41,385 nucleotides of DNA from a candidate division WOR-3 bacterium (GTDB taxonomy: Bacteria; Hydrothermota; Tepidihabitantia; Tepidihabitantales; Tepidihabitantaceae). Positions within the stretch are counted from its first letter, which is position 1. Every line of letters starts with the position of its first letter. This document shows, piece by piece, positions 8,766 through 35,697 of the stretch. The stretch lies in the NCBI GenBank assembly GCA_965648905.1, contig CBFGIT010000023.1, positions 1 through 41,385 on the forward strand, given 5' to 3'. A program made the translations under genes and the position numbers. The notes under the pieces are model-generated. The model searched no databases, had not been told where the DNA came from, and worked only from the letters and a program-made list of their open reading frames with translations.

Positions 8766-8811
8766 GCAGGAGTCATCAGCCCGAGGGGCGGTTCTGGGGG
8801 ACTCCATCCCC
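8766..8811 (-). ncRNA. fluoride (crcB) riboswitch
   Basis: Minus strand GGGGATGGAGTCCCCCAGAACCGCCCCTCGGGCTGATGACTCCTGC matches the crcB pattern (GATGGAGT...AACCGC...GCTGATGACTCCT), with the GGAGTC/GACTCC pairing; lies in the antiporter 5' UTR. Confidence 0.93.
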
Positions 8812-8824
8812 AAGAGCGCACTTG

Positions 8825-8852
8825 ATTCTAGCCGGAAGCTGCATCTTCGCAA
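8825..8852 (-). promoter_or_regulatory. promoter TTGCGA-N16-TAGAAT for the riboswitch/antiporter operon
   Basis: -10 at 8830-8825 lies just upstream of the aptamer. Confidence 0.55.
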
Positions 8853-9021
8853 GCCCGGCCGTTATTCCTCAGTCCGAAATGAGCCGCCAAGCCCACCATC
8901 CGAAGCCGGGGTCCAACCTGCTGATAGAACTGCCGACTCGCCTGCTCGCCAGCCCGCAATTCGACACGCTCTCTGAGGTAGCTTCTTGCCCGGCGCGTCG
9001 CCTGCTCCAGCGTGCAGTCCA

Positions 9022-9181
9022 ATGGTTTGCGTGCTCGCTGACTGGCTAATGTCTGCTGGTGTACATACCCTGAGCTGGGATGGCCGTGACTGGTTCGGCC
9101 AAGAGGCGGCCCCCGGGGGTATACGTTCTTAACGCGAATCTGGGCAGCAGGGCCACAAGAAAGCTGCTGTTGAGCTACTAG
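9022..9181 (+). pseudogene. frameshifted remnant of an FlgD-Ig/T9SS-like C-terminal domain
   Basis: MVCVLADWLMSAGVHTLSWDGRDWFGQEAAPG, then a frame change in the G5 run 9115-9119 to VYVLNANLGSRATRKLLLSY*; resembles the CTDs encoded at 20656 and 28198. Confidence 0.7.
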
Positions 9182-9264
9182 TCGCTCTTTCCCAGGACTT
9201 GGGCTGGCGACGCTGCCAGCCCACACCGGTTATGCCCGGCCCCAGAAGCACAGGTCTGGGGCAG

Positions 9265-9309
9265 AAAAAACCGGGCTTGGCTAGACGTTCTTCACGTCTA
9301 GCCAAGCCC
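9265..9309 (-). terminator. intrinsic terminator
   Basis: Perfect 15-bp stem (9273-9287/9295-9309), 7-nt loop, followed on the minus strand by GG and T6 (9265-9270). Confidence 0.85.
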
Positions 9310-9364
9310 AGGCTCAGTCTGGCTAAGCTACTTCGCCTTTACTCGTGAGCCTTGACGCAACGCG

Positions 9365-9415
9365 TCATGGAGGCCCGAGCGGACCAGGCCGCGGGGGAAT
9401 CGGAATTCCGTCCAT
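9365..9415 (-). CDS. 16-aa proline-rich peptide MDGIPIPPRPGPLGPP (below ORF-track cutoff)
   Basis: SD GGAGGT (9426-9421) 5 nt before ATG; sigma54 promoter upstream; terminator downstream. Confidence 0.6.
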   Translation of the reverse strand: MDGIPIPPRPGPLGPP

Positions 9416-9454
9416 TGGTTACCTCCGTTTGGCGTTTGCCTTCGGTACCAACAT

Positions 9455-9470
9455 AGCAACTACAATGCCG
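9455..9470 (-). promoter_or_regulatory. sigma54 (-24/-12) promoter
   Basis: CGGCATTGTAGTTGCT: GG-N10-GC with GGCA and TTGC boxes; ~165 bp downstream of a sigma54 activator gene. Confidence 0.75.
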
Positions 9471-9634
9471 CAGCGACAATTCTGTAAGTGTCGAGTTGAA
9501 GAGACTTACAGAACCGGTCGCACCACCTGTCACAGTCCGGGTCGACGATATTCTGTCGCACTAACTAGGCCTGGTGCTGTAAGTCATTGCAGATTGGCCC
9601 GTTACGATTTGGCTGTCGCGTGGTGCGACGACTG

Positions 9635-12600
9635 TCAGGAAAGCGATGTGCGGTCAATTCGATAGCGACGAATAAGTCTCTGAAGTTGACGACGATGGGT
9701 TGCCAGCAGTTCGGCAGCCTTGGAGACATTACCGTTGGTCTCGCGCAGCGCAGAGACGACCTGTTCACGTTGCAGTATCCGGCGCTTGGGCGAAACGGGC
9801 ATGGCTGTGCTCTCAGTTCCGTGAGCTGAGAGGCGGGCGCCAAGGTCCTCAAGGGATATCCTGCGCTTCTGGGTCATGATGACCGCACGTTCGATAACAT
9901 TGGCCAGTTCCCGAACATTGCCTGGCCATTGGTAGCTGTTGAGCGCGGTGAGAACCGGCTCCTCAAAGCCGGTGACCGGCTTATTGAGCTGGTTGGCGAA
10001 GCGCCGGAGCAGGTAGTTGGCGAGCAGCGGGATGTCCGGGCCGCGTTCGCGCAGGGCCGGGACGTGGATGTTGACGACATTGAGGCGGTAATAGAGGTCT
10101 TCGCGGAATCTGCCTTCAGCGATGTCCTGCTCCAGGCTCCGATTGGTCGCACAGACAAGACGGACATCGACCTGGCGGGTTGCGGTCTCGCCGACGCGGC
10201 GGATTATCTTCTCCTCAAGCACTTGGAGTAGTTTGGCCTGAATCCCAAGCGTCGTATTGGATATCTCGTCCAGGAATATCGTGCCGCCTTCGGCTGTCTC
10301 AAACAGGCCTTCTTTGTCGCGGACCGCGCCGGTGAAGGAACCGCGGGCATGACCGAAGAGCTCAGACTCAAACAGGGTCTCAGGCAGGGTGCCGCAGTTG
10401 ACCGGCACGAACTTCGCGCCCCGGCGTTCACTCTTCGAGTGAATCAGACGGGCCAGTACACCTTTGCCGGTACCGGTCTCGCCGGTGAGGAGCACGGTGC
10501 AGTCGGTCGGCGCAATTCGGTCAATCACCTTGTACACCTCGCGAATCGCTTTGGAGCGACCGATGAAAGCGCCGGTAACCGCATCGACCAGAATGTCGTC
10601 TCGGCTGGCGGATATGTCGTCCTGGAGCCGGCGGAAGGCCACCGACTTGTCAATGGTCGCGGCAAGGAGATTGGCGACCGAGGTCAGAAGGTTCTTGTCT
10701 TCCTCGAGGAACAGGTGAGCGGTAATCCGGCTGTCGAGATAGATGGTTCCGATTACCCGGTTGTCAACCCGGAGCGGAACGCAGAGCAGGGAACGGATCT
10801 TGTTGAGCACGACTGAGTTGGCCGCGTTGAAGCGCGGGTCTGAGACCGCATCCGAACTGAAGACAAGCTCTCCCCGACGCCTGACCTTGCGGATTACTGA
10901 ATGGGAGACCGTTTCCGCATCCTGAAGTGTGGCGTGATCCACGTTGCGCGCCGCAGCCGGAATCAGCTTGTCACCGTGGATGAGAAAGAGCAATCCTCGT
11001 TCTGCCTTGGTCAGGTCGATAACAAGATCAAGCACCCGCTCGGCAAAATCGTCTTTGTCGAGGTCAAGCGCGATCAGCTCGCTCAGATGATAGTAGGCTT
11101 TGAGGTATTCGCTGCGCTCTCGGGCCTTGAGCTGCATCGCGGCCGAAATCTGGGTCAGGGTCTGCATCAGGTCCTCGGCGCGGCCGAGGTCCGGTTTTGC
11201 CCCGAGGTGCGACAGTATCGCCTTTGCCTCTTTCAGGTTCTCAAGGGCCTCGTCGAGCTGCGCCTGAGGCACGGGTCTGACCGCAAGCGGCATCACCTGG
11301 CCGAGCGGGACGGTATCGTTCTGGCGGGTAATGGTCTGCACTGCGGCAAGCAGTGACAGAGCAAGCTCGTGCTTCGCACCCATTGACCTGAGCAGCTCGA
11401 TGCTCCGTTTCACGAGCTGGCCTGCCTTCTCGGTGTGGTCAAGCTGGGCCTGAGCAAGCCCGGCATAGCGCAGGGCAATCGCGTACTCCTTTGACGACGG
11501 ATAGTCCGAAAGCGCCTCAAGCGCCTTGTTCGCATGGACCTCGGCCCGCTGCGGGTCGCGCGTGGCCAGCCTCAAGCGGGCGGACAACGTCTGTAATTCG
11601 CCGCGCTGACGCCAGTTTGCCGGGTCCCGGGCATACCGCCAGGCCTGAACCAGGGCGGCTTTCGCCTGGTCGTACCGCTCAGCAGTAAGGGCGTAGTTGG
11701 CCTGTAGAACCAGATGGTGAAATGTCAGGTCCGGGTCGCCGGTCTGGGCAATGAGTGCCCAGGATTGATTGAGCAGTTCCTGTGCCGCGTCCAGCTCACC
11801 CTGATGCGTCTTGAGCGCAGCCAGGTTGGCGATTGCCGCGGGCCGGCCATAGGTGGCGCTGCTGTCGTAGAGCGCAATCGCCCGCTCAAGATGCTGCTGC
11901 TCTTCGGTCCATTCGCCGCGCTGGTCAGCCGCCATCGCGATGTTGGAGTGCAGGTCAGCCTGAGCCTGAACGTCGTTTATCCGCTGGGCCAACGCCAAGG
12001 CCTCGATGAAATGGTCATAGGCCCGGTCCCATTCGGCCTCGTCCAGAGCAATCAGACCCAGCCCCTGGAGCGCACGTAGCAGGTAGTACACGTCGCCGGT
12101 CTTACGGTGATGGGGCAGATAGCGCTGGTAGTAGTCGCGGGCCTTGTCCAGTTCGCCTCTTCGCCACCAGAGCGTGGCGATGAACTGACTGGTCTTGGCG
12201 GTATTATGGTCATCCCGGATCGTCTCGTACACGCCCAGACTCCGTTCGGCGAGCTGGAGCGCAAGGATGAAGTCGTATCGGCTCCAGGCAAGGACCGAAT
12301 AGTAGTAAAGCGTGCGGGCGGTAAGCTGATTGTGCTGCACCGGGTCAGTGTTGCGCAGCTTGTCGGTCAGTTGGATCGCCTGAGTCAGTAACTGCTCGGC
12401 TCGTTCGAAGTTGTGCACCGATGTGTAGGACCAGCCAAGGTCGGTAAGGATGTGAATGTGGGCCGGTGAGTTCTTGTCCGGCTGCATCAGCATCGCCTGA
12501 TTGAAGTAGTTGAGCGCCTCTTCGTTCTGCCCCTGTTTCTGGTGAACCAGGCCGAGCTTGCGCAGGAAACGGGCGAGAATGCTCTTCTCCCGGCTCAGGT

Positions 12601-14866
12601 CAGCGTCGGCCACGATAATCGACATTCCCTGGGTGTAGATGTCGATCGCCTCAAGGTAGCGACCTGTGGCCTCGCGCAACTGCCCCACGGTCTCAATCAA
12701 CTGGATGCGCTGACGGGGACTCGCAATCTGGGCCGAAAGGCCGAGTGCGGTCTCGTAGAAACTGAGCGCCTGCTCAATCAGACCCAGTTCGTGCGCCCGG
12801 GCTCCGGCTCTGACCGAATAGTCGTAGGCACGGTCCGGAATCGCCGCCTGGGTGTAGTGGTGGGCAAGGTCGAAGATCAGCCGGTCGATCCGGTCCGGAT
12901 AGAGCAGTTCCAGAGCCAAGGCAACCCGGCGATGATAGTCGCGCCGGGCTTCGGCCGACAGCCGCTCGGTAACGGTCGCCTCCAGAATCTTGCTCGACAG
13001 GATGTACGCCGGGTTGGTCTCGCGCGAGAACGTCTTCAAGAGCCCCAGCGCCATCAGCCGCGCGACGGCATTGAACAGGGTCTTGTCGTCGTAGCCCAGC
13101 ACCGCCCGCAGCAGCTCCAGCTCAAACGGCGCAGCGGCCGCGGCCCCGGTCTGCAGCACGGCCAGCTCCTCACCCTGGAGCTTGTCCAGTCGCCGCTTCA
13201 CAACATCGGTCACCGTATCCGGCGGCCGGTACGCGGCCAGCGCGTCCTCAAGCAGCAGCCAGCGCGTACCGCGCAGCTCCAGAATCCTGGCTTCAATCAG
13301 TGAGTGGACCGTCTCGATGACAAAGAGCGGATTGCCGCCGGTGATGTTCATGCACCAGTCCACGAGCAGCGGCATCTTGGGCAGCTCGCCGAGCAGCGAG
13401 CCAAGCAGTGCTTCGCACTCGGTCGCATCCAGCGGCGGCAGGCTCACCAGAAATGAGCACGGCCTGCGCTCGAACTCCGCAATCAGGTCAAGGAAACGCT
13501 TCTCCTTCAGCCCGGCAACGACAACCAGCAGTCGCTCGTTACTGAGACTGAACACCAGGTAGCGGAGAAACTCAAGCGAGGTCGGGTCAAACAGTTCGAA
13601 ATCGTCCACCAGCAGGATCAGCGAGTGGTTGACCCGGTGCGACGAGGACAACTCCCTGAGGCGCTGGGTCACGATGTCGAACAGCCGGAACTTCGATTCC
13701 TCGGTCAGCCCGGCTGAACCGTCATCAAGCGTGGGAACCGATGCACCGGTGTAGACCTGAAGATACCCGAGCACCCCTTCGATAAGCGATTGCGGCCGCG
13801 CGCCCAGGGATGCCGGCTCCACCCGCAGGATAGTTGCCCCGTCAAGCTGGGCAAGGAACTTGAATTCCGACAGCAGCCGAGTCTTGCCCACACCACGCTC
13901 ACCGGTGATGCAGACGACTCCGGCTTTGCCCGAAGTCGCACCGGCCAGCATCTCGCGCAACTGGGAAACGAACTGGGAACGGCCGACAAACCCCGGTGCC
14001 ATGAGGTACTTGCGCGCGCCGGCCGCAACTGCTGCGCCTGCTGCCTTGGGCCCAGCCAAGGTCTCAATCACTGCCGCGGCCGAACGCGGTCGGCGCTCCG
14101 GTTCCTTGCGTACCAGCGACATGACCAAAGCGGCAAAATCCTCAGGTATCCGGGTGTCAAACTTGGTTGGTGGGTCGAAGTCGGCGTAGTACTGCTGTCT
14201 AAGCCAGGCGCGCAGGTCCTTCTGACTCCGCGGTCCTTGGCCAGTGATTGTCTCATAAACTACAACGCCCAAGGAGTACAGGTCGGCCCGGGCATCAACG
14301 TCCCCGCCCTTGAACACCTCGGGCGCGATATAGCCCAGTGTACCGCGTGGCGTGCTTGCATCGGTCAGTGCGACCTTCTCGGCAAACCCGAAGTCAAGCA
14401 GCTTGGCGATTGGCTTGTCGCCGTCTGCGACAATCACGATATTCTCCGGCTTTAGGTCGCAGTGAATCAAACCCTGAGCATGGATGCTGTCCAGCGCCGA
14501 AAGGACCTGAATTGTAACGTCCACGATTTCAGGGGTATATCCGCTGACAAAGTGCTTGTTGATTGGAACACCGCTACAGAACTCCATGGTGAAATACGGC
14601 CGGCGTTCCGCGGTCGAGCCGAAATCAAGCGCGGCAACTATCCCCTTATGGGAGAAGCGCGACAGGTAGTAGAACTCGCGGTTGAGTCGCAGTTCGGCTT
14701 CCTTGGGTGCGTCCTCGCGCAACATCTTGACCGCAAGGGTGCGTCCGCCGATGATATCCCTAACTTTGTATACCTCGGTATGTTCTCCCCCTCCCAGGAA
14801 AGAAAGAACCTGGTATCGTTCGGATATTACCTGCGACGGCTGATACGTTCCGGCAGGTTGCTGCAC
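9635..14866 (-). CDS. Ser/Thr kinase - AAA_16 ATPase - TPR - GAF - sigma54 AAA+ - Fis HTH transcriptional activator
   Basis: Kinase AVKML, HCDLKPEN, DFG, GTLGYIAPE; Walker A GERGVGKT; TPR array; GAF SLLCVPL..IGTIYLD; GETGTGK, ESELFGHARGSFTGA, FREDLYYRL, WPGNVREL; HTH GNVSKAAELL. Start moved from ATG 14887 to GTG 14866 because a consensus promoter overlaps the ATG. Confidence 0.93.
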   Translation of the reverse strand: MQQPAGTYQPSQVISERYQVLSFLGGGEHTEVYKVRDIIGGRTLAVKMLREDAPKEAELRLNREFYYLSRFSHKGIVAALDFGSTAERRPYFTMEFCSGVPINKHFVSGYTPEIVDVTIQVLSALDSIHAQGLIHCDLKPENIVIVADGDKPIAKLLDFGFAEKVALTDASTPRGTLGYIAPEVFKGGDVDARADLYSLGVVVYETITGQGPRSQKDLRAWLRQQYYADFDPPTKFDTRIPEDFAALVMSLVRKEPERRPRSAAAVIETLAGPKAAGAAVAAGARKYLMAPGFVGRSQFVSQLREMLAGATSGKAGVVCITGERGVGKTRLLSEFKFLAQLDGATILRVEPASLGARPQSLIEGVLGYLQVYTGASVPTLDDGSAGLTEESKFRLFDIVTQRLRELSSSHRVNHSLILLVDDFELFDPTSLEFLRYLVFSLSNERLLVVVAGLKEKRFLDLIAEFERRPCSFLVSLPPLDATECEALLGSLLGELPKMPLLVDWCMNITGGNPLFVIETVHSLIEARILELRGTRWLLLEDALAAYRPPDTVTDVVKRRLDKLQGEELAVLQTGAAAAAPFELELLRAVLGYDDKTLFNAVARLMALGLLKTFSRETNPAYILSSKILEATVTERLSAEARRDYHRRVALALELLYPDRIDRLIFDLAHHYTQAAIPDRAYDYSVRAGARAHELGLIEQALSFYETALGLSAQIASPRQRIQLIETVGQLREATGRYLEAIDIYTQGMSIIVADADLSREKSILARFLRKLGLVHQKQGQNEEALNYFNQAMLMQPDKNSPAHIHILTDLGWSYTSVHNFERAEQLLTQAIQLTDKLRNTDPVQHNQLTARTLYYYSVLAWSRYDFILALQLAERSLGVYETIRDDHNTAKTSQFIATLWWRRGELDKARDYYQRYLPHHRKTGDVYYLLRALQGLGLIALDEAEWDRAYDHFIEALALAQRINDVQAQADLHSNIAMAADQRGEWTEEQQHLERAIALYDSSATYGRPAAIANLAALKTHQGELDAAQELLNQSWALIAQTGDPDLTFHHLVLQANYALTAERYDQAKAALVQAWRYARDPANWRQRGELQTLSARLRLATRDPQRAEVHANKALEALSDYPSSKEYAIALRYAGLAQAQLDHTEKAGQLVKRSIELLRSMGAKHELALSLLAAVQTITRQNDTVPLGQVMPLAVRPVPQAQLDEALENLKEAKAILSHLGAKPDLGRAEDLMQTLTQISAAMQLKARERSEYLKAYYHLSELIALDLDKDDFAERVLDLVIDLTKAERGLLFLIHGDKLIPAAARNVDHATLQDAETVSHSVIRKVRRRGELVFSSDAVSDPRFNAANSVVLNKIRSLLCVPLRVDNRVIGTIYLDSRITAHLFLEEDKNLLTSVANLLAATIDKSVAFRRLQDDISASRDDILVDAVTGAFIGRSKAIREVYKVIDRIAPTDCTVLLTGETGTGKGVLARLIHSKSERRGAKFVPVNCGTLPETLFESELFGHARGSFTGAVRDKEGLFETAEGGTIFLDEISNTTLGIQAKLLQVLEEKIIRRVGETATRQVDVRLVCATNRSLEQDIAEGRFREDLYYRLNVVNIHVPALRERGPDIPLLANYLLRRFANQLNKPVTGFEEPVLTALNSYQWPGNVRELANVIERAVIMTQKRRISLEDLGARLSAHGTESTAMPVSPKRRILQREQVVSALRETNGNVSKAAELLATHRRQLQRLIRRYRIDRTSLS

Positions 14867-14873
14867 GGCAGAT

Positions 14874-14901
14874 ATTATAGGCCGCATTGTGCAGTTGTCA
14901 A
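14874..14901 (-). promoter_or_regulatory. consensus sigma70 promoter TTGACA-N16-TATAAT (leaderless into GTG 14866)
   Basis: Exact hexamers; GTG 7 nt after the -10; 9-bp inverted repeat GCAGTTGTC/GACAACTGC (14891-14920) overlaps the -35. Confidence 0.75.
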
Positions 14902-14985
14902 GCTAGGCTGCGACAACTGCCGGCGGTGCGACATCGCTATAGTCCATTACCCCAGGCTGACTTATGATGTGACAACCCTGGCATG

Positions 14986-15013
14986 TTGACTTGCGGCCGG
15001 TTGCGACTAGACT
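14986..15013 (+). promoter_or_regulatory. promoter TTGACT-N16-TAGACT (leaderless into GTG 15022)
   Basis: Hexamers at 14986-14991 and 15008-15013; no SD before the start. Confidence 0.6.
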
Positions 15014-20655: not shown

Positions 20656-23600
20656 TTATCTCATCAACACCGCTTTCTTGACATTGCGGTAGTCAGGAGT
20701 GTCGAGCCCGTAGAAGTAGATGCCGTTGGCGACCCTGCGGCCTCTTGTGTCGGTTCCGTCCCAGACCGCAGTGTACCGGCCCGGCTTGCGGGTGCTGTTG
20801 TCGAGGGTCCTGACCACCCGACCCGACGCATCAAACACCCGCAAGAGCACTCTGCCTGCGCTCCCGGTCTGATACCTGATGGTCGTGGCCCGGTTGAACG
20901 GATTGGGCTGAGCCGGGAACAGCTCAGGCTGAATCCTTGCCGGCGTGGTGCTCGCGCTCTGCTGGCCGCCGAGGATGTCGGCCAGGTCGAGCTTGGAGTA
21001 GCTCACCTCGTAGTACTCGGTCTTGGGGTTCTCCGAGGCGATAAGGTGCAGGATAACCGTAGGCTCGGGCGAGCTGGTCGGCTGAAGCAGGACATGCGGG
21101 AAGCTGGTCCTGGTCGAGTTGTCGGCCAGGTTCACGGTGTCGCCGTAGTTGACGCAGGCGAGGATGTCGTAGTCCTCTTCGTTCCGGTGCTCTTCCCAGG
21201 CAACCAGTACCGAGTCGCCAAGGAACACGACCGGATACTCTGAGCCGTTGTTCAGGGTGTTGGAGAGGTTCACGGCTTCTTCCCAGTCGTCATAGTCGTC
21301 GATGGTGGCCCGCTCGCGCACGTAGATGTCCGGTGTGCTGCCTTCGGCACAGGCCAGGACCAGCTTGTCTGAGTTCCCGACCAGACAGGGATGGCGCGCG
21401 GCCTGCTGGCCAGACTCGAACAAGATCACCGGCTCCTCCCAGCTTGGGAAGGTCTGCCAGTCGTCCGTGGCCCAGTCGCTTGCGGTCATCGAGTATCTCA
21501 CGTTGCCGTTGTCTTCCCAGGCAGCGTGCAGCCGGTCGCCTGAGCCGCCTGAGTTCTCGGCCGCGATGCAGGGGTTATCGACCTCACCCTCGGCCAGCGT
21601 ATCGGCCTTCAGATTGTCGGCATTGAACTTGGCCACCACGAGATACGTGGAGTTACCGGAGTTGGTGTACCGGAACGCAACGTAGGCGCAGGAGTTAGCG
21701 TTGTCCGGCGAGCCGGAAAGCGAGATGCCGCTGAGTCTATCCTTGCCCGGCTCGACTGAGTAGAGCGCCTTGGCAGTTGACCAGGTGTCACCGGCCCGGA
21801 AACGGGCCATGACCTTGTGCGCGCCTGCGTCGTGGTAGACCACCCAGAGTCTGCCTGTGCCGTCATACGACAGGGCCGGGTACTCGCCATTCTCGCACAG
21901 ACTCAAGCGCCTCCACGAGTCGCCCGAAGCAGACCACGCAAAGTAGACCCCGCCCGCCGCATCTGCGTAGACCGCAAACAGCGAGTCAGAGTCCGGCTTG
22001 CGCACCAGCTTGGTGCCGTTGTTGGCCCTGGTCGCACCTGGCCCGGCATTGGATACGTTGAAGCTGTCCACCTGGAATCTGACTTCGCCGGTGTCGTAGA
22101 CGCCCGAGTCCACTTCGAATACCTGCGCGCTCGTGTAGAGCAGGTTGACCCGTATCTGGTCAATGGACGGGCTTACCGCTGATGAGCAGGCGACCGCGTG
22201 CGGATGGTAGGCATCGGTGTCATTGGCCACCAGCGTCACGACGCTGTCCCGCACCCGGGCATAGATGTTCCAGACTCCTGCAACCTGCTCCTGCCACACG
22301 GTCACGCCGCAACCGGCATAGACCGAATTGGCCTTCACAGTCGTTCCCGTGGCTCCGTTGCTCGGATTGGCTCCCGAAATCCAGTCCTGGAACATTGCTG
22401 TCGGGCTCAGGTCGCAGGTCGCACGGCAGACGTTGAACGTATCTGCTGCGCCCTGGGTCACAACCCTCTGAGAGAACGCGCAGTGCAGCACGTTCCCTTC
22501 GAGCCGCGAGGCAGGGTGATACCCGTTCGCAGTCACAAGCTCCAGGGCTGACCATGCCGTCGGCCGGTTCCAGTTGCCGGGCCCGTAGTCGAGGAGCTTG
22601 GCGGAAACCACCGAGTCGCCGCGCTGCCAGACCACACAGACCGAGTCCCCGTAGGCGATGTTGATGCTCGGACAACTGTCGCCCAGATTGTCCACGGACG
22701 CGATGGTGTCGAGCAGCAGGTTCTCGGCGTCAAACTTGGCCCAGAGAATCATGCTCGTTTCTCCGACCGAGTCGTAGACCGGGAATGCCACGGCACCGAC
22801 GTACTGCCCGCTCACATCATCCGGGTAGACATGGATCGAGGGCATCTCCGGCCTAGCTGCGCTTGAGCCGCAGAAGATCGCCACCGGCTGGCTGTCGCCG
22901 ACGACACACCAGAGCGTGTCGTCGCAGACGTACACAATCCAGCTGACCCCGTTGCCGTCAATGGCAAGCGCCGGATCTCCACCCGGTGCAACCATCACCG
23001 GGATAGGTCTGCCCAGAACCGGCCCCGAGGCAACGTGCTTCCCGACGGTCCCGGCCCAGTACAGTTGGCCGCCGAGTCCGGGTTCCAGGCCCCAGTGCGC
23101 GCGACCCGGAATCACGCTTGGCGACACAGCCACCCGCCTCCAGTAGCCGATTCGGCGGTACAGACCGACAGCGGTGCCACCGGCGGCTCTTGGGTCGGCC
23201 CACACGCAGGTTCCGTGAGGTAGTCCGTTGCGATGCCCCACGGACAGGTTGATCGTCGCCACCGACGGGTTATACCCATCAAAGGGACCGCTTGGGCACA
23301 ACCAACCGAAGCGCTTCCAGTAGAATCGCGACTCTCCCGAGTAGAAGCGGCCGAAGGAACTGGCAACCGCGCGCTCAGCCTCGCGGGCTTTGACCTCGCA
23401 GACCACGGCCACAGAGAACCTGCCCTCAGTGAGAACCGCGGAGACGTTGGGCGCGGCGTAGTCGTATGCCGGGTTCAGCTCCACGATCTGCTCTGAACTC
23501 CAGTTGGCGCCAGCGTCAGTAGACCACTTGTAGGCGATTCGATCGTCTGCGTCAACCCAGCAGGCAAACACAGTGTCACTGATGGCGGCGATACAGGGGT

Positions 23601-33407: not shown

Positions 33408-33428
33408 AAAGTGCAAAGGAGCGGCAAG

Positions 33429-34784
33429 ATGAAGCCCCTGGTTCTTGTTGTCGATGACGACATCGGGCTGGCTGAGCAACTGGGCAGGACGCTGCGGTCT
33501 GAAGGCTATGACGTCGTGCTCTGCCACCAGGGCGCAGACTGCCTGAGCCGCATCGCAGAGCATGACTTCAATCTCGTGCTGCTCGACCTGGTGCTGCCAG
33601 ACATGAATGGGCTCGACGTGCTGAAGAAGGTCAAGGAGCAGAAGCCCGATTTGCCGGTCGTGATGGTGTCGAGCTTTGGTACGATTCCGGTTGCGGTCAA
33701 GGCGGCCCGACTCGGTATCTACGACTTCCTTGAGAAGCCGTTCGAGCCTGACCGACTGTTCCTTGTGGTCAGAAACGCGCTTGAGCAGGACCGATTGGCA
33801 CGCGAGGTTGAAAGTCTGCGCCGCGAGACTCGGGGAAGGTACGAAATGTTCGGTTCCTCAGCCGCGATTCAGAAGGTCTTCCGGCTCATCGAACAGGCCG
33901 CGCCCAGCCAGACCACGATTCTCGTGCTGGGCGAGACTGGAGTCGGCAAGGAGCTTGTCGCCCGGGCTATCCATGAGCAGAGTCCGCGTGCCCGCCACCG
34001 ATTCGTCAAGGTAAACTCCGCCGCGATTCCGCAGGAGCTGATTGAGAGTGAGCTTTTCGGGTACGAGAAAGGCGCATTCAGCGGCGCTGTGGCGCGCAAG
34101 CCGGGCAAGCTCGAACTGGCCCACGAAGGAACCTTGTTCCTCGACGAGGTCGGGGACCTGAGCCTGTATACTCAGGCCAAGCTGCTCAGGTTTTTGCAGG
34201 ATCGCGAGTTCGAACGGGTCGGCGGAACCGAAACCCTGAGAATCGACGTACGCGTGATCGCAGCGACAAACAAGAACCTTGTTGAGGAGATCAAGAACAA
34301 GAACTTCCGCGAGGACCTGTACTACCGGCTGAACGAGATTACCATCCGCGTGCCGCCGCTGCGTGAACGGAAAGAGGACATTCCCCTGCTCTGCCAGCAC
34401 TTCTTGGAACGGTTCTGCGAAGAAGAGGGCGTGCCGATGAAAACACTGACTCCGGATGCCATTGCGTTTCTGTCCAGCCAAGAATGGCCGGGCAACGTGC
34501 GTGAGCTGCGCGGAGTCATGCGTCGGCTCGTGGTTCTCTCGCACGCGCCGGTCGTCTCGGCCCGCGACATCGCCCTGCTCGCCACCGGCAACGGCAACGG
34601 TCAGACCGCGGGAGCGCCCCAGTCCTTCTACGAGGCGCGGGACCGGTTTGAGCGCGACTACATACTCAAGGTTATTGCCGAGGAAAAGGGAAACATGTCC
34701 AGCGTGGCACGCGTACTGGACATGGACCGCAGTACCCTTTACCGGAATATGGAGCGGCTCGGCATCAAGCCGCCCCAGAGTTGA
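33429..34784 (+). CDS. NtrC/NtrX-family sigma54-dependent response regulator
   Basis: Receiver VVDDD, LLDLVLP, FLEKPF; GETGVGKE, ESELFGYEKGAFSGA, WPGNVREL; Fis HTH; SD AAGGAG before ATG 33429. Confidence 0.95.
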   Translation: MKPLVLVVDDDIGLAEQLGRTLRSEGYDVVLCHQGADCLSRIAEHDFNLVLLDLVLPDMNGLDVLKKVKEQKPDLPVVMVSSFGTIPVAVKAARLGIYDFLEKPFEPDRLFLVVRNALEQDRLAREVESLRRETRGRYEMFGSSAAIQKVFRLIEQAAPSQTTILVLGETGVGKELVARAIHEQSPRARHRFVKVNSAAIPQELIESELFGYEKGAFSGAVARKPGKLELAHEGTLFLDEVGDLSLYTQAKLLRFLQDREFERVGGTETLRIDVRVIAATNKNLVEEIKNKNFREDLYYRLNEITIRVPPLRERKEDIPLLCQHFLERFCEEEGVPMKTLTPDAIAFLSSQEWPGNVRELRGVMRRLVVLSHAPVVSARDIALLATGNGNGQTAGAPQSFYEARDRFERDYILKVIAEEKGNMSSVARVLDMDRSTLYRNMERLGIKPPQS

Positions 34785-34823
34785 CAGTAAATCAGCCCGA
34801 CAATCGAGCCTGACCTGTCTTGA

Positions 34824-34866
34824 GTGTTGCGAATCCGCAACACCGCCTGCTGCAAGAATGCAGCAG
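34824..34866. promoter_or_regulatory. tandem enhancer-like dyads (UAS)
   Basis: GTGTTGCG-N4-CGCAACAC (34824-34843) and CTGCTGCA-N4-TGCAGCAG (34847-34866), centres 23 bp apart. Confidence 0.7.
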
Positions 34867-34981
34867 TTTGACCGGCTGAGCCCGGCTTGCACCGGGCCCG
34901 AGTTCGAAATCCACGACCCAGTCTGGCCGCTAATTGCTTCTTAGGACGGCTCCTGCCTGCGGTCGGGCCGTGCTTGACGCG

Positions 34982-34997
34982 TGGCACGTGTTCTGCA
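34982..34997 (+). promoter_or_regulatory. sigma54 promoter
   Basis: TGGCACGTGTTCTGCA: TGGCACG box with GG-N10-GC spacing. Confidence 0.75.
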
Positions 34998-35199
34998 TTT
35001 GCCCAGGCATGATGCGTTGGCAAGAGACGTCTGCGGAGGGGCTGTGCCTAGACCCGCAGTTTCGGCACAGCCTGGTCCGAGGCAAAAAGACTGGTCGGCG
35101 AAGCAGGCCGGCGGTTCGTGTTCAGCAGGTTCAACCACAACCTGCCGGGTCGGCCATGAGTCACGCGTTACTGGCCCTTTGCCGACAATGGGAGGTGAA

Positions 35200-35619
35200 A
35201 TGACATCGGTCCGAATCATGCTGGCTGGACTTGGTCTGGTTGCAGCTCTGCTGTCCGGCTGCGAAATGTTCACAGAGGAGCACCTGCTCGAAATGACCGA
35301 GGCCGGCGAGGTCAAGGTTACGCTGCTCGCGAACGAGGGCACGTCCTCGGCCCTGTATCTGTATCGGCCAATCCAGGTCTTACTGTGCGCCAATTCATCA
35401 GGCAATGTCGGCAAGACCTTCTCGGCCGGGACCTATCCGGCCGGAACCGGACTTGCTTTCATGATCCAGACTAACGGCCAAACCGTGAACAGCGTCGACA
35501 ACCCAGACCACTTCCAAGTCGAGGATATCATTGACAACTGCTGGCGCATCAGTTGCGAAGACGCGGTCTCGAACGACGAGGACTTCGACGACCTGATGTT
35601 CGAAGTCAGGGTAGAATGA
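35200..35619 (+). CDS. lipoprotein with DUF4114-like acidic C-terminus
   Basis: SD GGAGGT; lipobox LSGC; ISCED...DEDFDDLMFEV. Confidence 0.72.
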   Translation: MTSVRIMLAGLGLVAALLSGCEMFTEEHLLEMTEAGEVKVTLLANEGTSSALYLYRPIQVLLCANSSGNVGKTFSAGTYPAGTGLAFMIQTNGQTVNSVDNPDHFQVEDIIDNCWRISCEDAVSNDEDFDDLMFEVRVE

Positions 35620-35697
35620 GGTTGTTTCAAGAGCGGTTCGCCAGACTTGACCAGGCGAGTGGTCGTGTTATGGTAGTCCTGAAAGGAGTCCTACTTG

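Follow-up and report, generated by a model that had tools for sequence, protein, structure and literature searches.

We analysed a 41,385-nucleotide (nt) stretch of DNA, contig CBFGIT010000023.1 of GenBank assembly GCA_965648905.1, which belongs to a candidate division WOR-3 bacterium of the family Tepidihabitantaceae (Hydrothermota); the whole stretch is referred to as the window and its genome as G000. The minus strand contains a giant gene for a sigma-54 activator, followed on the same strand by a small transcription unit with a 16-codon, proline-rich open reading frame (ORF). Pfam models divided the activator, in order, into a Hanks-type kinase, a STAND NTPase, an array of tetratricopeptide repeats (TPR), a GAF domain, a sigma-54 AAA+ domain and a Fis-type helix-turn-helix (HTH). 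The features of the two genes are listed below, with G001 denoting a genome of the same genus.

14887-9635, minus strand: activator gene P0001, 1750 codons, from the ORF list and its translation, with a TGA stop at 9637-9635
14078..14815, minus strand: Ser/Thr protein kinase domain, residues 25-270 (Pfam Pkinase, E=3e-43)
13520..13990, minus strand: AAA_16 STAND-type NTPase, residues 300-456 (Pfam AAA_16, E=4e-20, 73 bits, above the cutoff; AAA_22 also matched)
10997..12820, minus strand: TPR array, approximately residues 690-1297 (Pfam TPR_12 in five stretches, E=1e-33)
10652..11053, minus strand: GAF domain, residues 1279-1412 (Pfam GAF, E=1e-16)
9809..10564, minus strand: sigma-54 interaction AAA+ domain with lid, residues 1442-1693 (Pfam Sigma54_activat over 1442-1608, E=3e-71, and AAA_lid_14)
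9662..9781, minus strand: Fis-type HTH_8, residues 1703-1742 (Pfam, E=6e-6, 26.3 bits against a cutoff of 22)
9614..9630, minus strand: distal enhancer-like site CGTCGCACCACGCGACA, directly 3' of the activator stop, identical in G001 despite diverged surroundings
9554..9560, minus strand: TGCGACA, the main half-site of the enhancer, at -91 relative to the GG of the -24 element
9517..9523, minus strand: proximal half-site GTGCGAC at -53, kept in G001
9482..9511, minus strand: inverted repeat CTGTAAGT ... ACTTACAG with perfect 8-bp arms, downstream of the enhancer sites and upstream of the promoter
9455..9470, minus strand: -24/-12 promoter CGGCATTGTAGTTGCT, with GG at 9469-9468 and GC at 9457-9456 (GG-N10-GC)
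9443..9445, minus strand: predicted transcription start, from the usual spacing after the -12 GC
9421..9426, minus strand: Shine-Dalgarno (SD) sequence GGAGGT, within the conserved leader CGCCAAACGGAGGT
9365..9415, minus strand: 16-codon ORF MDGIPIPPRPGPLGPP and its stop, with ATG at 9415 and the stop at 9367-9365
9312..9364, minus strand: 3' untranslated region (UTR), 100% identical to G001, with conservation ending at the genus
9265..9311, minus strand: intrinsic terminator, a hairpin at 9311-9271 (18 pairs, 11 of them G-C, 5-nt loop) followed by TTTTTT at 9270-9265

A preliminary description of this DNA had placed the promoter, SD, ORF and terminator on the minus strand, and all of its coordinates proved correct; the terminator stem comprised 18 pairs by folding here, compared with the 15 bp reported there. 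It had also regarded the ~180-nt stretch as a complete transcription unit, which agrees with the conserved promoter, SD and ORF that we found in the 3' flanks of activator orthologs. The first evidence came from a DNA search of 60 related genomes, in which window positions 9434-9378 (SD and ORF) were matched in several genera, and each of the loci detected had a Pro-rich micro-ORF behind an SD and a -24/-12 promoter. The exact pattern GGAGG-N5-7-ATGGAYGG-N3-9-CCNAT occurred once each in 10 of 44 family genomes, and the reversed pattern had no occurrence. Upstream of the pattern in all 10 loci, and also in G004, a same-strand activator ortholog ended about 200 nt away; the orthologs at the 10 loci were full-length with 49-85% identity, and that of G004 was a C-terminal fragment at a contig end.

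The flank set contained the 3' flanks of 43 orthologs and the window (44 in total), of which five shorter than 300 nt were set aside, leaving 39 assessable flanks; G046, one of the five, still showed the peptide ORF. The rule applied to the flanks required, within 700 nt, an SD and behind it an ORF (12-140 codons) in which 16 residues include six or more Pro. Such an ORF was present in 37 of the 39 assessable flanks in the order, compared with 1 of 39 reverse-complemented flanks and 24 of 2000 random 700-nt pieces of the same genome. The remaining two (G036 and G018) carried the promoter and ORF at +719 and +1018, past an insertion, which brought the count to 39 of 39. Except for these two, the unit was located ~155-190 nt past the activator stop on the same strand. 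A scan of this kind had been proposed in the preliminary description, and both of its expected outcomes, the SD and Pro-rich ORF in the flanks and the excess of third-position changes (see below), were observed. Regarding the promoter, a -24/-12 match of at least 8/10 (GG and GC obligatory) 20-110 nt before the start was found in 25 of 37 units but in only 82 of 5000 random pieces, and the ortholog promoters had the form TGGCAC/T-N5-TTGC. Pure chance was rejected as the origin of the unit, and these comparisons make it nearly certain that a conserved unit is co-located with the activator.

Several further observations concern the unit itself. In G036 (L089) and G018 (L080), ~500-800 nt of extra DNA lies between the activator stop and an intact enhancer, promoter and micro-ORF. 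A crude terminator rule found hairpins after 21 of 28 micro-ORFs; this rule misses long stems, including those of the window and G001. When positions 8800-10000 were searched against Rfam, the best match was a microRNA model (21.8 bits against 80) that covered the terminator hairpin alone. No public RNA run was listed for positions 9000-15000, which has no bearing on expression. Words of the TAAGTTA/TAACTTA type were enriched near the position of the inverted repeat in 14 of 32 ortholog regions, and the repeat at 9482-9511 is possibly an IHF-like DNA-bending site or the operator of another regulator.

The ORF evolves as coding sequence, as the preliminary description had implied. In 15 pairs of matching length whose nucleotide identity was 70% or higher, which are related and not independent, the differences at codon positions 1, 2 and 3 numbered 38, 23 and 99, respectively. 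For example, G017 and G024 encode the same 18 residues with five synonymous and no non-synonymous codon changes. Length differences were whole codons (e.g., MDGIPI versus MDGIVPI). In the window peptide, MDGIPIPPRPGPLGPP, a single Asp is balanced by a single Arg (net charge 0), and a signal peptide is absent. Leaderless forms of this kind, 16-21 codons long, were used by most genera of the family, and two g10 genomes had two micro-ORFs in tandem. The conserved core was approximately hydrophobic-P-hydrophobic-P-P-x-P-x-P-hydrophobic-x-x-P-P, and the Pro-Pro directly before the stop was not conserved among orthologs. In 7 genomes from 6 genera, the slot behind the same promoter was occupied by an alternative form with a Sec-type signal peptide (assigned by eye) and tandem copies of the motif: three in G004 and G027, two in G021, four in G005 and G041, five in G037 and at least two in G015, where the contig ended. 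Because these signal-peptide and tandem-repeat forms keep the motif, the product appears to act as a peptide. No Pfam or NCBIfam model matched any form of it. Taken as a whole, the pattern of substitutions suggests that the micro-ORF very probably yields a translated peptide.

Beyond the order, activator homologs with 24-31% identity in the STAND-TPR region were found in 79 of 272 genomes of the phylum (E<=1e-40). Nineteen distant flanks were fetched, 17 of which were assessable, and 9 of the 17 passed the strict Pro rule. By eye, an ORF of 46-67 codons followed the activator in G060, G201, G222, G212, G176, G178, G089, G087, G269, G271 and G266; it consisted of a signal peptide and a short mature part with a Pro-rich motif, and in seven of these genomes (G060, G201, G222, G212, G176, G178 and G089) it was preceded by a canonical -24/-12 match. 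G101 had a leaderless two-repeat form, and G270 and G268 were flagged by the Pro rule. No such unit was present in the distant flanks of G199, G252 and G254, and none was found downstream of Bacteroidota proteins with GAF-AAA+-HTH (L177 and L178) or of L176. In distant G222, G201 and G176, a second small ORF of 58-64 aa was located 3' of the exported Pro-rich gene (L127:2505-2696, L128:2086-2277 and L122:1346-1519). It had a faint Hfq-related match (E=0.17) and a poor structural model (pLDDT 58.8), and no relative of it was found in G000.

With regard to the activator, the predicted kinase motifs K49, D139, K141, D160-F161-G162 and A183-P184-E185 (G015 numbering) correspond to Lys/HxD/DFG/APE and were invariant in 18 orthologs (alignment A3). 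In the same orthologs the Walker A motif of the STAND NTPase (G-x-G-x-G-K) was invariant, and the HTH and both Walker A motifs were invariant or nearly so. The sigma-54 contact loop reads GSFTGA in the translation; its F-T-(G)-A, as well as GETGTGK and D-E, was likewise invariant or nearly so. An AAA_16 NTPase followed by a repeat sensor is a STAND/MalT-like layout, and the match to Pfam TPR_MalT over residues 984-1297 was sub-threshold (41.5 bits, cutoff 45). The C-terminal 480 residues (GAF-AAA+-HTH_8) matched the NifA and NorR models with E=1e-113 and E=6e-105, respectively. Among the 25 best of 36 Pfam matches, no RNPP family and no SARP-type domain (Trans_reg_C, BTAD) was found, and the TPR matches there were generic. 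Judged by sequence, the activator has the features of sigma-54 enhancer-binding proteins: an AAA+ domain with a GAFTGA-type loop, a Fis-type HTH, and rpoN encoded in the genome (G000:C8), which harbors approximately a dozen sigma-54 activators.

The full architecture was common to ~78 protein clusters at >=38% identity, and the next STAND-TPR relatives beyond these orthologs were adenylate-cyclase fusions with no more than 27% identity. When the STAND-TPR region was used as the query, 46 of the 66 genomes in the order proved to have a single frame of ~1750 codons; among the families, it was found in 36 of 43 (f1), 2 of 2 (f2), 2 of 4 (f3), 5 of 6 (f4) and 0 of 10 (f5) genomes. Database names of the orthologs were generic (sigma 54-interacting regulator, TPR protein, 'Nif-specific regulatory protein'), and some of the organisms were labelled candidate division WOR-3.

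What ties the unit to this activator is the arrangement of sites upstream of the promoter. The commonest 7-mer in the 200 nt upstream of 32 ortholog promoters was TGCGACA/TGTCGCA, present in 28 of them; the distance from a TGCGACA-type site to the GG was 90-97 nt in most of the listed regions, and many orthologs also had GTCGCA-type hexamers near -160. Distant relatives had the full palindrome TGCGACA-N3-TGTCGCA, and among them the palindromic enhancer sequence varied by activator clade, as would follow if every activator recognized the sites next to its own gene. When G000 was scanned with a matrix derived from the promoters of the orthologs, the window promoter ranked second of 71 matches, a partly circular result as the matrix includes the window; it was the only one of the 71 with three such hexamers upstream. 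Compared with congeneric G001, upstream identity was patchy, with the enhancer blocks and promoter kept and the remainder diverged, and was followed by 138 columns at 100% from window position 9443 (alignment column 198) into the terminator. This block begins one base from the predicted start. The terminator stem showed two-sided compensatory changes relative to G001. Because the half-sites and promoter are conserved and positionally fixed, and because the unit is co-located with the activator, we infer with considerable confidence that the adjoining activator drives the peptide promoter.

The preliminary description had proposed a module dedicated to a single target, which now appears too narrow because the same half-site and promoter occur at a second apparent target, a small RNA on contig C28. 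When the unit was compared with the rest of its genome, the strongest match was a 21-nt antisense stretch on this contig (E=0.155, not significant alone), located within the following feature.

G000:C28:22696-22857, minus strand (loci L130 and L141): C28 small RNA unit, outside the window

Its promoter, CTGGCACGACCGGTGCT, lies at ~22850, ~90 nt upstream of the antisense stretch, and TGTCGCA is found 85-87 nt before the GG of this promoter in G000. The predicted transcript of ~115 nt (from ~22826 to ~22712) contains a G+C-rich stem closed by a T-run. The loop enclosed by the stem, CUAUUGGUUCCUCCGUUUGGCGUC, can pair with the peptide mRNA over a segment that begins upstream of the SD and includes the AUG, forming 14 + 7 pairs interrupted by a single bulge. 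Fourteen genomes from 11 genera kept the hairpin RNA together with its promoter and half-site, upstream of a fixed sigma-70-type promoter, and in 13 of these genomes (our own count) TGTCGCA preceded the GG by 86-90 nt. One stem pair was altered on both sides, from G-C to A-U (by eye). A covariance model of the small RNA (R1) recovered 7 true loci in a family search; weak matches in G032 and G002 were dropped as coding sequence. The small-RNA region had no Rfam match at E<=1, and ARAGORN detected no tmRNA or tRNA in it.

Pairing was assessed by comparing the RNA core and its cognate leader with 1000 SD-preserving shuffles, which replaced over-permissive duplex energies of long RNAs. Five genomes from 4 genera, including the genus of the window, showed a significant antisense match.

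G000: -41.3 kcal/mol, 0 of 1000 shuffles as good
G001: -41.2 kcal/mol, 0 of 1000 shuffles as good
G019: -36.0 kcal/mol, 0 of 1000 shuffles as good
G007: -40.7 kcal/mol, 0 of 1000 shuffles as good
G006: -29.1 kcal/mol, 10 of 1000 shuffles as good

The segments flanking the SD varied by genus, and the C28 RNA varied along with them. The C28 sigma-54 RNA thus appears to be a conserved companion of the module, predicted to be antisense to the ribosome-binding site (RBS) of the peptide mRNA in at least 4 genera, and it seems somewhat more probable than otherwise that it controls this mRNA by antisense pairing. A translational brake is the simplest reading of the RNA, and a mutual sponge is equally possible. 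Further observations were made 3' of the small RNA (G000:C28 ~22270-22660, minus strand; alignment A4), where a sigma-70-type promoter, TTGACA-N17-TAGAAT, is followed by ~380 nt of cross-genus nucleotide conservation, including the blocks GGGCGCATCAC and GGGTCTCTCTGCCATCT.AGCCTCTCGCC. This stretch had no Rfam match (E<=1), no ARAGORN tmRNA and no Pfam match for its overlapping ORFs, and is possibly an undescribed structured RNA.

As a whole, these data are best explained by a regulatory module of two genes, those of the activator and the peptide, that is conserved in an uncultured lineage; we assign this explanation a probability of about 60%. The activator would be a 1750-aa cytoplasmic sigma-54 enhancer-binding protein in which the kinase, STAND NTPase, TPR and GAF domains gate the AAA+ motor. 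Its Fis-type HTH would bind the TGCGACA/TGTCGCA half-sites in the 3' intergenic region of its own gene, and the activator would then open the -24/-12 promoter at 9470-9455. The outcome would be a ~180-nt monocistronic RNA (from ~9444 to 9265) translated into the 16-residue MDGIPIPPRPGPLGPP. At the second target, the same half-site at the C28 promoter would drive the ~115-nt RNA that brakes peptide translation or takes part in a mutual sponge. As to what the peptide does, we tentatively favor a partner or signal of the module that acts back on the TPR sensor, either inside the cell or after export, by analogy with the AfsS and PapR systems discussed below. The predicted complex between residues 660-1425 of the G015 activator (TPR and GAF, 18-row alignment) and its own 38-residue repeat fragment (P0002) scored 0.01 and 0.10 against a mark of 0.32, which weighs neither for nor against such binding.

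Several observations weigh against the module or against parts of it. The promoter match by itself was at chance level, the window containing 28 matches with two or fewer mismatches compared with 21 expected; the promoter is significant because it is conserved in the ortholog flanks. The window promoter has a C in place of the T before the GG. Besides, 12 of 37 units failed the promoter test, mostly f3 and f4 units, which often have GT and not GC at -12, or units whose promoter was further upstream. Copies of TGCGACA in the genome number 318, with ~368 expected, so the word is not rare, and the assignment of both promoters to this activator rests on position and conservation in a genome with around a dozen other activators. 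As for the antisense RNA, the cognate pair was the best pair only for G000/G001 and G007, and no significant complementarity was found in G005 (601/1000), G015, G064, G004, three g9 genomes and G021. A single site of action is difficult to square with the occurrence of both leaderless and signal-peptide forms, and no exporter, importer or protease gene was found near the unit among the window neighbors. Finally, identity with G001 at synonymous sites and in the 3' UTR implies a constraint at the RNA level, which a peptide-only model does not explain.

A different view of the peptide, which we consider somewhat unlikely, is that it is an output acting elsewhere, as an exported antimicrobial, adhesive or matrix effector or as an intracellular binder, with the activator only timing its production. 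The Sec-type signal peptides in 7 genomes from 6 genera of the order and in most of the distant relatives, several of them with tandem copies, fit such a role. Some variants also have Pro-Arg-Pro runs (e.g., MDGIPILPRPRPITGPPR), which recall the proline-rich antimicrobial peptides of insects and mammals. However, the window peptide has no net charge and other variants are acidic, unlike cationic antimicrobial peptides; with no signal peptide either, the window peptide is not a strongly cationic exported peptide of the proline-rich antimicrobial kind. No immunity, export or modification genes adjoin the unit, most genera of the family use the leaderless form, and no family model matched the peptides. 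The transcript might instead be mainly a regulatory RNA (a dual-function small RNA or a sponge), with the C28 pairing as its point and the ORF secondary or a by-product. This would account for the 138-nt block that is 100% identical between G000 and G001 from the start into the terminator while the upstream region diverged, for the conservation of the leader CCAAACGGAGG beyond the needs of an SD, and for the pairing of this leader with a conserved sigma-54 small RNA. Outside the genus, however, the SD and ORF alone were conserved and the 3' UTR was not, substitutions tracked codon structure, the motif survived full recoding and duplication in the signal-peptide repeat forms, and several genera lacked the antisense partner sequence, all of which renders this view very unlikely. 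The preliminary description had proposed a micropeptide or a small RNA; the former is supported by coding evolution, and the transcript, which is 100% identical between G000 and G001 over its whole length, may serve as both.

It is also known that proline runs slow ribosomes, so the micro-ORF could in principle be a cis-acting leader peptide whose translation controls read-through to the downstream gene. This gene was smpB in 15 of 44 ortholog loci. A strong terminator nevertheless closes the unit, smpB had its own sigma-70-like promoter where read and was on another contig in G000, the signal-peptide repeat forms make no sense as leaders, and the Pro-Pro-stop was not conserved. The attenuator hypothesis was rejected on account of the terminator, the separate promoter of smpB and the repeat forms, and is extremely improbable. 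Returning to the two-gene module, an extended version can be envisaged: a self-contained circuit in which the activator senses its own Pro-rich peptide via the TPR and co-expresses an antisense RNA that sets a translation threshold, and in which lineages switched repeatedly between a private leaderless form and a public, exported, multi-copy form. This version is unlikely and is offered as speculation; if true, the circuit would correspond to the peptide quorum sensing of Gram-positive bacteria, but would be based on sigma-54 and have an RNA brake of its own.

The layout has precedents in other bacteria. It has been reported that in Streptomyces the kinase AfsK phosphorylates AfsR, a protein with a STAND ATPase and TPR, and that AfsR activates the adjoining downstream gene afsS; AfsS, a small protein with short sequence repeats, binds to AfsR in turn and strengthens the DNA binding of AfsR, and expression of afsS requires AfsS itself, a positive autoregulation (PMC10832544). 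The two systems are alike in having a kinase, an ATPase-TPR regulator and a small gene directly downstream, whose activation is presumed in our case. They differ in that the kinase here is fused in one 1750-aa chain, which carries GAF, sigma-54 AAA+ and Fis HTH domains and not SARP, and in that its small product, either a Pro-rich peptide of 16-21 aa or a repeat precursor that is exported, does not resemble AfsS in sequence. The module may therefore work like AfsK/AfsR/AfsS but is no member of that system, since no SARP domain was found among the 25 best of 36 Pfam matches and no likeness to AfsS was seen.

In Firmicutes, the gene downstream of a TPR regulator such as PlcR is activated by that regulator and encodes a peptide that is secreted, re-enters the cell and is bound by the TPR. 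Similarly to PlcR-PapR and other RNPP systems, the window has a cytoplasmic TPR regulator with a small peptide gene right behind it and presumably under its control, and the distant relatives match the layout of PapR, NprX and Phr (46-67 aa, signal peptide, conserved C-terminal core). The differences are the lack of any sequence relation, the sigma-54 output, the added kinase, STAND and GAF domains, and the window peptide having no signal peptide. The leaderless form fits the AfsS precedent and the exported forms fit the PlcR-PapR precedent.

The LuxO-Qrr system of Vibrio (bioRxiv 10.1101/2021.07.01.450815) is a further analogue. There, a sigma-54 enhancer-binding protein drives short, terminator-ended RNAs that pair with RBSs. 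An RNA gene beside the activator gene, sigma-54 drive and RBS pairing are common features; by contrast, LuxO is a response regulator, the adjoining RNA here encodes a conserved peptide, and the antisense RNA here targets the other product of the activator. The C-terminal arrangement of GAF, AAA+ and HTH_8 is that of NifA, NorR and FhlA, but scores were below the equivalog cutoffs of NifA and NorR (380 versus 529 bits and 352 versus 476 bits, respectively) and the GAF domain comes after ~1270 residues that comprise the kinase, STAND and TPR regions. MalT-like STAND regulators and kinase-STAND-TPR fusions such as TIGR03903 (TOMM system kinase/cyclase) likewise have AAA_16 followed by a TPR sensor, and TIGR03903 matched three stretches with 195 bits; its cutoff of 706 bits is far above this score, and the effector here is a sigma-54 activator and not a LuxR-type domain or a cyclase. 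SgrS/SgrT and RNAIII/delta-haemolysin are dual-function small RNAs that also encode a small peptide. They resemble the unit in being short, terminator-ended RNAs in which a conserved tiny ORF is combined with constraint at the RNA level; the difference is that the sole pairing partner known here is the C28 small RNA, and either RNA may regulate the other.

Full-text searches, whose coverage did not extend to subscription journals, returned no published description of the regulator-peptide pair. The statement in the preliminary description that no such pairing had been described is in agreement with this result, with the qualification that the layout has analogues in AfsK/AfsR/AfsS and PlcR-PapR. 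What is new is an AfsR/AfsS- or RNPP-like layout with a fused kinase, a sigma-54 output and a putative RNA antagonist. If our reading holds, a sensory protein that takes up ~5.3 kb serves to control a peptide of 16 residues, and evolution has preserved the regulator-peptide pair through the order and, with alterations, over much of the phylum. The micropeptide genes also make up an additional family, one that lacks annotation and escapes gene callers. The leaderless, exported and tandem-repeat series provides natural material for studying shifts in the place where a peptide partner or signal acts, and the antisense sigma-54 RNA, if confirmed, would be a rare case of one activator driving both a message and its translational antagonist. 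As the organisms are uncultured, heterologous tests are the sole present route; the compact, portable target of this sigma-54 regulator (enhancer, promoter and reporter-sized gene) is suited to them, and the input domains could be dissected in E. coli.

Other genes in the window encode a Na/H exchanger, YitT, a nitrilase-type hydrolase, NikR, a TonB receptor and ZnuA, and suggest no function shared with the module. The gene behind the unit was not fixed: smpB occupied this position in the loci counted above (L038-L047 and L078-L110), and smpB of G000 was at G000:C13:11343-11717. In the g9 genomes, further TGTCGCAC/GTGCGAC sites were found between the terminator and smpB. The window also contains a second sigma-54 activator, which is of ordinary size (457 aa, 33411-34784, plus strand). 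Approximately 200 nt past it on the same strand is TGGCACGTGTTCTGCA (34982-34997), followed by an SD and a putative lipoprotein gene starting at ~35201 with the lipobox LSGC (region 33411-35620, plus strand). With this promoter behind the 457-aa activator, the layout of an activator followed by its own sigma-54 target appears to recur in the genome. Besides, the promoter TGGCATGGTGCTTGCA occurred three times in the genome, at C6:62350-63700 (minus strand), C3:137907 and C4:94730; the C6 copy was located behind another activator gene and before a small ORF with the Cys-rich stretch CSTCNHAKNCGY.

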